Below are positions 10,421 to 11,177 of a stretch of DNA of 11,560 nt, one piece after another; positions within the stretch are counted from its first letter, which is position 1, and each line of letters begins with the position of its first letter. Under the pieces are notes generated by a model. It was not told the DNA's origin. It did not search any database and worked only from the letters and a program-made list of their open reading frames with translations. The position numbers and the translations under genes were made by a program. The stretch comes from a virus, in UHGV virus genome UHGV-0176440. One strand, written 5' to 3'.

Positions 10421-10513
10421 CACATGACAACAAACGCCCGTTAAGTGTCTATATAAAAAGGTAGCTGTAGCTATAGACAACAATTGTGATAATTGATTAA
10501 ATGTCTATAGACA
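10421..10513. promoter_or_regulatory. res-like cluster of palindromic sites upstream of the small serine recombinase gene
   Basis: TGTATaaATACA (10421-10432); TGTCTATA-18bp-TATAGACA (10446-10479, 34-bp span); perfect 12-bp palindrome TGTCTATAGACA (10502-10513). Half-sites resemble the TGTCY..TA type bound by resolvases; position matches the usual res-before-tnpR arrangement. Confidence 0.45.
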
Positions 10514-10554
10514 AACAAAACAGACCTTTGTTGACTATATAGAGAGATAAGAAC

Positions 10555-11130
10555 ATGTCACGCATCTTTGCTTACTGTCGTGTATCAGTTGATGACTCCA
10601 CCAATGAGAACCAGATTGAAGCTATCAAGAATGCTGGTTACACAATCCCTAAGACACGAATCATAGAGGAAGTAGTGTCCGGTTCAGTGGCTGCTATGGA
10701 GCGTAAAGAGTTCTCTAACTTGGTCACACATAAACTAGAAGCTGGTGATACGCTGGTGGTTCTCAAGCTTGACCGTTTAGGACGTGATTGCATCGACCTA
10801 CAGAAAACGGTTGATATGCTCATTGCAAAAGGGATTAAGCTGATTTGCTTAGACCTGCCTGTGCAGGACTTATCCAAGCCAGAAGGTAGAATGATGCTTC
10901 AAATGTTCGGGGCTTTTGCAGAGTTCGAACGTAACCGCATCAGAGAGCGTACTAAGCAGGGTCTACAGCGTGTTAAAGCACAAGGTAAGGTGTTGGGTCG
11001 TCCTGTAGCTGTGAACACTACAGAGGCCGTTTTAGAGCATAAGGCTAAGGGATTGTCACAAAGTCAGGTTGCAAAGCTTCTGAATCTCTCTGTAAGAACG
11101 GTTAGCCGTCACTGGACAAAGACACTGTAA
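10555..11130 (+). CDS. Small serine recombinase (resolvase/DNA-invertase family, 191 aa)
   Basis: N-terminal catalytic motif AYCRVSVDD, conserved LDRLGRD segment, C-terminal HTH (GLSQSQVAKLLNLSVRTVSRH). SD GAGAGATAAG before ATG. Confidence 0.9.
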   Translation: MSRIFAYCRVSVDDSTNENQIEAIKNAGYTIPKTRIIEEVVSGSVAAMERKEFSNLVTHKLEAGDTLVVLKLDRLGRDCIDLQKTVDMLIAKGIKLICLDLPVQDLSKPEGRMMLQMFGAFAEFERNRIRERTKQGLQRVKAQGKVLGRPVAVNTTEAVLEHKAKGLSQSQVAKLLNLSVRTVSRHWTKTL

Positions 11131-11151
11131 GAAACTTAGTAGCATCTTCAT

Positions 11152-11177
11152 AGCCTCCTTAATTGGGGGCTTTTTTG
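11152..11177 (+). terminator. Rho-independent terminator after the small recombinase gene
   Basis: AGCCTCC-ttaatt-GGGGGCT stem (one G-U wobble) followed by TTTTTT (11171-11176). Confidence 0.65.

Follow-up and report, generated by a model that had tools for sequence, protein, structure and literature searches.

What is a small serine recombinase with a site of its own doing in an island of the Escherichia coli chromosome, outside any transposon? The question is posed by positions 10424-11177 of the 11,560-base stretch of DNA analysed here (the window, at its full length). A first-pass annotation saw a compact small-serine-recombinase unit there, with a res-like site and a terminator, and proposed that it resolves multimers of its element, drives an inversion or deletion switch, or acts as an autoregulated regulator. 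The unit itself stands, with every element found at the coordinates that had been given for it. What it does has to be argued from several lines of evidence. The reading favored here, to which we would give a probability of about 0.7, is that 10424-11177 is a self-contained res-resolvase module of the Tn3/gamma-delta type that lies outside any transposon, resolves multimers of the island circle and probably represses itself. It is clear that the module is real, intact, conserved and in a new carrier.

The gene (10555-11130, + strand) is predicted to encode a small serine recombinase (resolvase) of 191 amino acids, with the catalytic domain, helix E and C-terminal helix-turn-helix of that group. 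Residues 4-145 match the Pfam Resolvase family (PF00239; E 1.5e-37) and helix-turn-helix families match at 157-190. The best of the solved relatives is gamma-delta resolvase (E 1.3e-24), followed by Tn3 resolvase (E 1.1e-21), Gin (E 2e-18), and Sin (E 4e-11). The segments YCRVS (with S11), DRLGRD, and FAEFERNRIRERT align with gamma-delta resolvase, and R9 is present. Identity to the Tn3/gamma-delta resolvases is about 35%, the domain order is the same, and their S10 and R2/R32/K54/E56 are conserved. The last four are the key residues of the regulatory (2-3') interface in Tn3 resolvase (PMC9943657). Their counterparts in the window protein are R3, R35, K60, and E62; in an alignment of 11 sequences that includes gamma-delta resolvase, R3, R35, and E62 do not vary and K60 hardly does. 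The gene is under purifying selection, with dN/dS values of 0.08-0.32.

The DNA immediately 5' of this gene holds the putative recombination site. The word TGTCTATA occurs four times in the 11,560 bases, and all four copies lie inside 10446-10513, a stretch of 68 bp upstream of the gene. Shuffled sequences have a mean of 0.49 copies per window and none of 200 reaches four. There is no other dyad of that word in the window. The combination TGTCTATA-N18-TATAGACA spans 34 bp (10446-10479) and has a single match in the window, with 0 expected, and TGTCTATAGACA is a perfect 12-bp palindrome at 10502-10513. The span and the palindrome had both been noted in the first-pass annotation and both exist. 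However, its parsing of the palindromes as three separate sites is wrong because the geometry conserved among homologues (described below) divides the same DNA into sites I, II, and III. The 34-bp span then pairs the right half of site I with the left half of site II, and the 12-bp palindrome arises where site II, by its right half, abuts the left half of site III.

Crossing over is presumed to take place at site I, which would be a 28-bp dyad (10424-10451, + strand; ATGACA-N16-TGTCTA) at -131 from the ATG, with the centre AACG-CC-CGTT. It is followed by a linker of 22 bp (10452-10473), the sequence of which is not conserved. Sites I and II of Tn3 res are also joined by a 22-bp linker (PMC9943657). 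The predicted site II is a 34-bp dyad (10474-10507, + strand; TAGACA-N22-TGTCTA). Site III (10508-10537, + strand) reads TAGACAA-N16-TTGACTA; its internal layout is uncertain, and its outer right half-site ends 30 bp past site II. Together the three sites take up 114 bp. When sites I and II are scored jointly with a fixed geometry, none of 300 shuffles equals the window.

How general is this arrangement? Upstream regions were compared for 15 homologous loci from eight other genera plus E. coli islands. The E. coli island loci were L003, L004, and L013. The other loci were those of Pluralibacter (L025), Vibrio (L016, L033, L035, L036), Aeromonas (L019, L034), Shewanella (L027), and Photobacterium (L030), and the small-plasmid loci (L021-L024) came from Providencia, Enterobacter, and Citrobacter. 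A single-protein genome scan for close relatives had yielded one useful locus, and locus context was taken from exact-protein look-ups. The scored geometry was a 6-mer at position p, the reverse complement ending at p+28, a 6-mer at p+50 and the reverse complement ending at p+84. It was recovered in the window and in L003, L004, L016, L019, L023, L025, and L027, with 0 of 300 shuffles reaching the score in each case. L033 and L034 also fit the geometry exactly. L021 and L030 were recovered with small tolerances, their linker being 21 bp, and L035 and L036 fit by eye with a second site of 33 bp. In L022, L024, and L028 the res pattern is degenerate or different.

The overall picture is one of constant spacing and changing words. 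The dyads lie at equal distances from the start codon in the compared loci, the linker is 22 bp in nine loci and 21 bp in two, and the spacing of the window is shared with 11 further loci. The layout recurs upstream of homologues from nine genera, with examples in loci of E. coli, Pluralibacter, Vibrio, Aeromonas, Shewanella, Photobacterium, Providencia, and Citrobacter. The half-site word differs by lineage (TAGACA, GTATCA, GTGTCA, or CGTCAT), and the recognition helix varies along with it (LSVRTVSRHW, IGIATVKRHW, LSLRTVQRHW). Site III is less uniform. Its outermost right half-site lies 30-32 bp after site II in ten homologues, as measured by eye. Its left half is inverted, perfect and touching site II in the E. 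coli and Pluralibacter alleles, and loci of the GTATCA group have a direct repeat as their inner half-site.

The window allele and the L003 allele (1869-2438) are 72% identical over the whole protein, with no difference in the DNA-binding domain (about the last 50 residues). This fits the TAGACA sites that they share. Judged from the aligned alleles, the window allele is a mosaic that differs from L003 in the catalytic domain.

Homologues of the window protein with 54-61% identity are found on enterobacterial plasmids of 4-33 kb. The same site accompanies them on plasmids of 4.1 and 32.8 kb, and a degenerate version is present on plasmids of 9.6 and 10.6 kb. Homologues with the same site on small circular plasmids of 4-33 kb fit a role in multimer resolution. 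A separate observation concerns Vibrio, where in L033, L035, and L036 a homologue and its matching res lie beside type I restriction-modification and other defence-type genes, with tyrosine integrases also present in L033. The module is common in such defence-island-like regions.

The res of Tn3 and gamma-delta has the layout 28/22/34/5/25. The window matches 28/22/34 exactly, and the outer end of its third site is equally 30 bp after site II. Both have a res of about 114 bp with three dimer sites, and in both site III is next to the resolvase gene. The upstream DNA would therefore qualify as a three-subsite res of the Tn3/gamma-delta type (28-bp site I, 22-bp linker, 34-bp site II, site III adjoining the gene), with an inner layout of site III that differs or is uncertain. 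In Tn3, site III consists of a 5-bp gap and 25 bp, whereas in the window it seems to adjoin site II directly and takes up 30 bp. At its centre, site I of the window has a non-palindromic dinucleotide (CC), unlike site I of Tn3/gamma-delta. The half-site is TAGACA rather than the TGTCYNNTA of Tn3. The window also differs from Tn3 in having no Tn3-family transposase or transposon ends. A Tn3-family transposon was considered as the carrier and rejected, as the window has no ORF for a TnpA-type DDE transposase and no convincing terminal inverted repeats of about 38 bp.

Stand-alone resolvases that resolve multimers are familiar from plasmids; Sin on staphylococcal plasmids and ParA on RP4 are examples. 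They resemble the window unit in having a stand-alone resolvase, a site just 5' of its gene and a replicon that is not a transposon. They differ in that the carrier of the window unit is a chromosomally integrated island, the replication of which is assumed. The Sin system uses two sites and a host bending protein (PMC9943657), whereas the window has three sites with Tn3 spacing.

The carrier is an island in wrbA. At both ends the window matches wrbA of E. coli, the empty site consists of 145 uninterrupted bp of that gene, and the island comprises about 11.4 kb (roughly 115-11529). It has a gene for a large serine recombinase, the integrase (173-1816), and a pair of tail genes, Dit-like and tape-measure, parts of which are 90-95% DNA-identical to 88-kb Felixounavirus-type phages. 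Compared with phage vB_EcoM_P54, the Dit-like protein is 77% identical, the tape-measure protein is 33% identical and the gene order is the same. The other contents are an HNH gene, several unknown genes, and a 2-kb ORF-poor stretch. The island has no capsid or packaging genes. Anti-phage defence models gave no meaningful match with any of the island proteins. Phage genomes were searched for res-like DNA with the idea of a helper-phage target in mind, and gave chance-level matches only. Related islands are found in wrbA itself, in the interval from tonB to yciI, and close to dinB. A literature search found no papers on such an island. The family is apparently undescribed, and the module marks its right arm. 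The island may be a phage satellite or a tail-interference element.

One region of the island deserves a separate mention. A 90-amino acid ORF (7399-7671) resembles HNH endonucleases, with a Pfam match too weak to pass the cut-off. It overlaps the 5' end of a 139-amino acid ORF with a C-terminal helix-turn-helix (7013-7432), both on the - strand. The region is variable among relatives, which have a Dam methylase and larger helix-turn-helix proteins there instead.

Multimers presuppose a circle that replicates. No replication gene or origin was identified in the island, so circular replication is assumed; the integrase and the phage-related content suggest it. Integrative mobilizable islands of the SGI1 type have an accessory small serine recombinase, a separate integration recombinase and helper-dependent replication. 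SGI1 has a tyrosine integrase and conjugative helpers. The wrbA island differs in having a large serine integrase and phage tail genes.

Comparison of related islands by blastn places the module in an exchangeable slot of the island family (10362-11192). The conserved flanks stop at 10361 or 10395 on the left and restart at 11181-11193 on the right. The slot holds the window-type resolvase in L002, L003, and L013. In L001 (12288-13155) it holds an unrelated serine recombinase of 180 amino acids (30% identity), and in L005 and L006 (1711-2587 in L005) an unrelated resolvase of 182 amino acids on the opposite strand (36% identity). In L007 (1685-2156) there is no gene, just 470 bp of other non-coding DNA. 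The three slot recombinases are 30-37% identical to one another, and both of the alternative ones have multi-dyad sites upstream of their genes. Since such sites accompany unrelated fillers, it seems that a resolution function is kept in the slot and not one particular gene. Nevertheless, islands of the L007 type do without a slot resolvase, so the function is dispensable.

The slot flanks are present in 534 of 5426 complete E. coli genomes (about 10%) and the window-type cassette in 109 of the 5426. Two copies of the cassette occur in seven of these 109 genomes, without obvious harm; in the one two-copy genome examined, there was no second cassette copy within 20 kb. A rule that co-resident islands never share a resolvase type was considered, but it is unsupported given the seven genomes with two copies. 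The slot position of a Pluralibacter island from this family also contains a resolvase, with 65% identity. Islands of the family can exchange the unit as a cassette; it is not one of their fixed core genes. The first-pass annotation had named membership of an adjacent unrelated transposon as the outcome that would undo its reading. Taken literally this is not what was found, yet the recombinase does belong to something exchangeable.

Is the module a passenger, a remnant of a plasmid or transposon that was captured by recombination and has no role in the island? A slot that is variable and sometimes empty would suit such a history, as would the mosaic nature of the window allele, with its L003-identical DNA-binding domain. 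However, remnants fit poorly with a gene that is intact, under purifying selection and present in 109 genomes, with the resolvase filling the same position in Pluralibacter, and with the lack of any transposase or transposon ends nearby. We regard this explanation as quite improbable.

What if the enzyme is a DNA invertase, or works a deletion switch, with a partner site elsewhere in the island or chromosome? The PHROGs label for the family is "DNA invertase". Hin, Gin, Cin, and Pin belong to the same superfamily and are of similar size, and Gin is one of the solved relatives noted above. A 61%-identical Citrobacter homologue is encoded on a plasmid beside genes for flagellin and an fljA-like repressor, and a different resolvase has the opposite orientation in the L005 and L006 slot. 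However, searches with the word, the span and the dyads found no second copy of res and no inverted partner in the window, in either orientation, which bears out the earlier remark that no obvious inverted partner lies there. The invertases act at single short inverted-repeat sites with an enhancer, whereas the window has three subsites with resolvase spacing, not a single 26-bp site. The Citrobacter homologue has a three-part res too. The oppositely oriented fillers are unrelated proteins (the 36% identity given above) and not inverted copies; those window-type cassettes that align with both flanks are on the same strand as the flanks, and none of the fetched loci has an oppositely oriented copy. 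Nor are R2 and R32 known to be conserved in Gin. A system of the Hin/Gin type, with two inverted short sites bracketing a segment, was looked for in the window and rejected. The switch proposed in the first-pass annotation thus finds neither a partner site nor a suitable architecture, the site having accessory subsites, and we consider it very improbable.

The Citrobacter locus (L023) is worth describing in its own right. It lies at 114-3264 of the Citrobacter youngae plasmid pCF10-F, where the homologue and its three-part res adjoin the flagellin gene and a gene annotated as "phase 1 flagellin transcriptional repressor." The arrangement resembles the hin-fljBA region of Salmonella, and the site is res-like, not hix-like.

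The next issue is how the gene is expressed. Downstream, the strong terminator that had been predicted corresponds to an intrinsic-terminator-like hairpin on the + strand (11152-11171; AGCCTCC-TTAATT-GGGGGCT) followed by TTTTTTG, which takes the unit to 11177. The stem is 7 bp and G+C-rich (-15.8 kcal/mol, z = -2.5). Upstream matters are less simple. The 12-bp palindrome had been said to overlap the likely promoter, but no promoter can be placed there with confidence. Most homologues have a -35 hexamer, TTGACA, within site II; the window equivalent is degenerate (TTGTGA or TTGATT), and a promoter scan found no convincing promoter inside res in the E. coli alleles. There is, however, a promoter-like element at 10362-10388 (+ strand; TTGACT-N15-TGcTATAAA, with an extended -10) that reads into the slot. 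The scan missed it because its spacer is 15 bp. The element is at the edge of the conserved left flank, is shared by the window, L001, L002, L003, and L013, and is absent where the slot filler is inverted (L005, L006). Its sequence suggests promoter function, and it may drive the resolvase gene instead of an internal promoter.

These observations raise the possibility that the resolvase is mainly a DNA-binding regulator. In this scenario a domesticated protein represses its own transcription and read-through from 10362-10388, and recombination is irrelevant in the island. Tn3 resolvase is an established repressor at res. Each island has a single res copy, the conserved promoter-like element reads into it, and site II contains the TTGACA hexamer in most homologues. 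Against this, the catalytic serine, the full set of catalytic motifs and the interface residues are conserved under purifying selection, and there is no gene between the resolvase and the terminator to be regulated. Furthermore, the site I centre AAACGnnCGTT is kept across lineages in which the half-site words have changed, as would be expected of a crossover site but not of a simple operator. A role confined to regulation is therefore unlikely. Self-repression alongside resolution is another matter, and by analogy it is likely.

The DNA around the module is ORF-poor and repeat-bearing on both sides, as had been reported. No Rfam family was found in these flanks, even at E <= 1. On the left, about 2 kb (8510-10555) are without a convincing ORF and contain several promoter-like/terminator-like pairs on the + strand, with seven terminator-like hairpins in total compared with 2.1 expected. 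Within this stretch there is a pair of 48-nt repeats (at 9105 and 9200; 92% identical) with promoter-like hexamers in each, and GTATGG occurs three times (10080, 10105, 10115). The region could hold small RNAs or an iteron-bearing origin. A 41-nt repeat (6102-6142 and 11453-11493; 85% identical) with an internal GGATG...CATCC dyad has one copy some 40 bp short of the right island end, and similar copies are found at the right edge of the slot filler in L001, L005, and L007. The best inverted repeat around the module is weak (10189-10218 with 11281-11310; 73% complementary). It was considered as a pair of partner sites or transposon ends and rejected, since the flanks are conserved whatever the slot holds.

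One more explanation ties the module to the integrase. Perhaps it serves the large serine recombinase by converting concatemers or tandem copies into monomer circles, and its specificity is swapped between islands to limit cross-reaction. Homologues do occur in small islands with a large serine recombinase in E. coli, Vibrio parahaemolyticus, Aeromonas, Shewanella, and Photobacterium. In Photobacterium, this pair of genes alone separates an IS3-type element from the chromosomal gene that follows. The alternation of three unrelated res-resolvase modules in one slot would also make sense. However, three Vibrio loci, amid type I restriction genes, have no large serine recombinase within 10 kb, and neither is one associated with the plasmid homologues. 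The idea of cross-talk avoidance is weakened by the presence of the same cassette type twice in seven genomes. A dedicated link with the integrase is, in our judgment, improbable, and a stricter rule that the resolvase is always paired with a large serine recombinase was rejected because of the three Vibrio loci.

This leaves multimer resolution with autoregulation, which of the three options in the first-pass annotation is the best fit to the res layout, the plasmid homologues and the interface residues. How might the res-resolvase module work? Resolvase dimers would bind the three upstream dyads, that is, the 28-bp site I and, beyond the 22-bp linker, the 34-bp site II and site III. If one supercoiled molecule has two directly repeated copies of res, the accessory sites (II and III) would build a synaptic complex through the conserved regulatory interface. 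The complex would then activate strand exchange at the centre of site I, and the DNA between the copies would be excised. Resolvase bound at res would probably also throttle transcription of its own gene.

A Tn3-type resolvase requires two res sites that lie in direct repeat within a single molecule. With one res per island, a substrate would arise only if the excised circle formed a dimer or multimer, if copies lay in tandem, or if there were a cointegrate. The predicted substrate is thus a dimer or multimer of the excised circular 11.4-kb island, or a cointegrate, and the products would be monomers. We infer that the enzyme is catalytically active and autoregulated, and that island multimers are its natural substrate. 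The case for a resolution module is made by the geometry, the covariation of word and helix, the crossover centre, the interface residues, the plasmid homologues, dN/dS, and the slot fillers. Several observations count against it, namely the lack of an island replication gene, the sister islands without a resolvase, the genomes with two copies, the layout of site III and the poor internal promoter in E. coli. A more ambitious extension is that the unit is a step in the life cycle of the undescribed E. coli island family, turning multimers into monomer circles for integration or packaging, with the three slot specificities kept diverse to limit recombination between co-resident islands. We regard this extension as doubtful.

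Taken alone, the unit is a resolution module of the textbook type. Its value lies partly in the company it keeps. The homologues form a natural series of resolvases with the exact spacing of Tn3 res, different half-site words and matching changes in the recognition helix, which is of use for understanding and engineering orthogonal resolvases. In addition, res-resolvase modules are seen to ride chromosomal islands as exchangeable cassettes, beyond plasmids and transposons. More interesting than the module itself is the biology of the island family that carries it, including its helper phage, its replication and the function of its tail genes.
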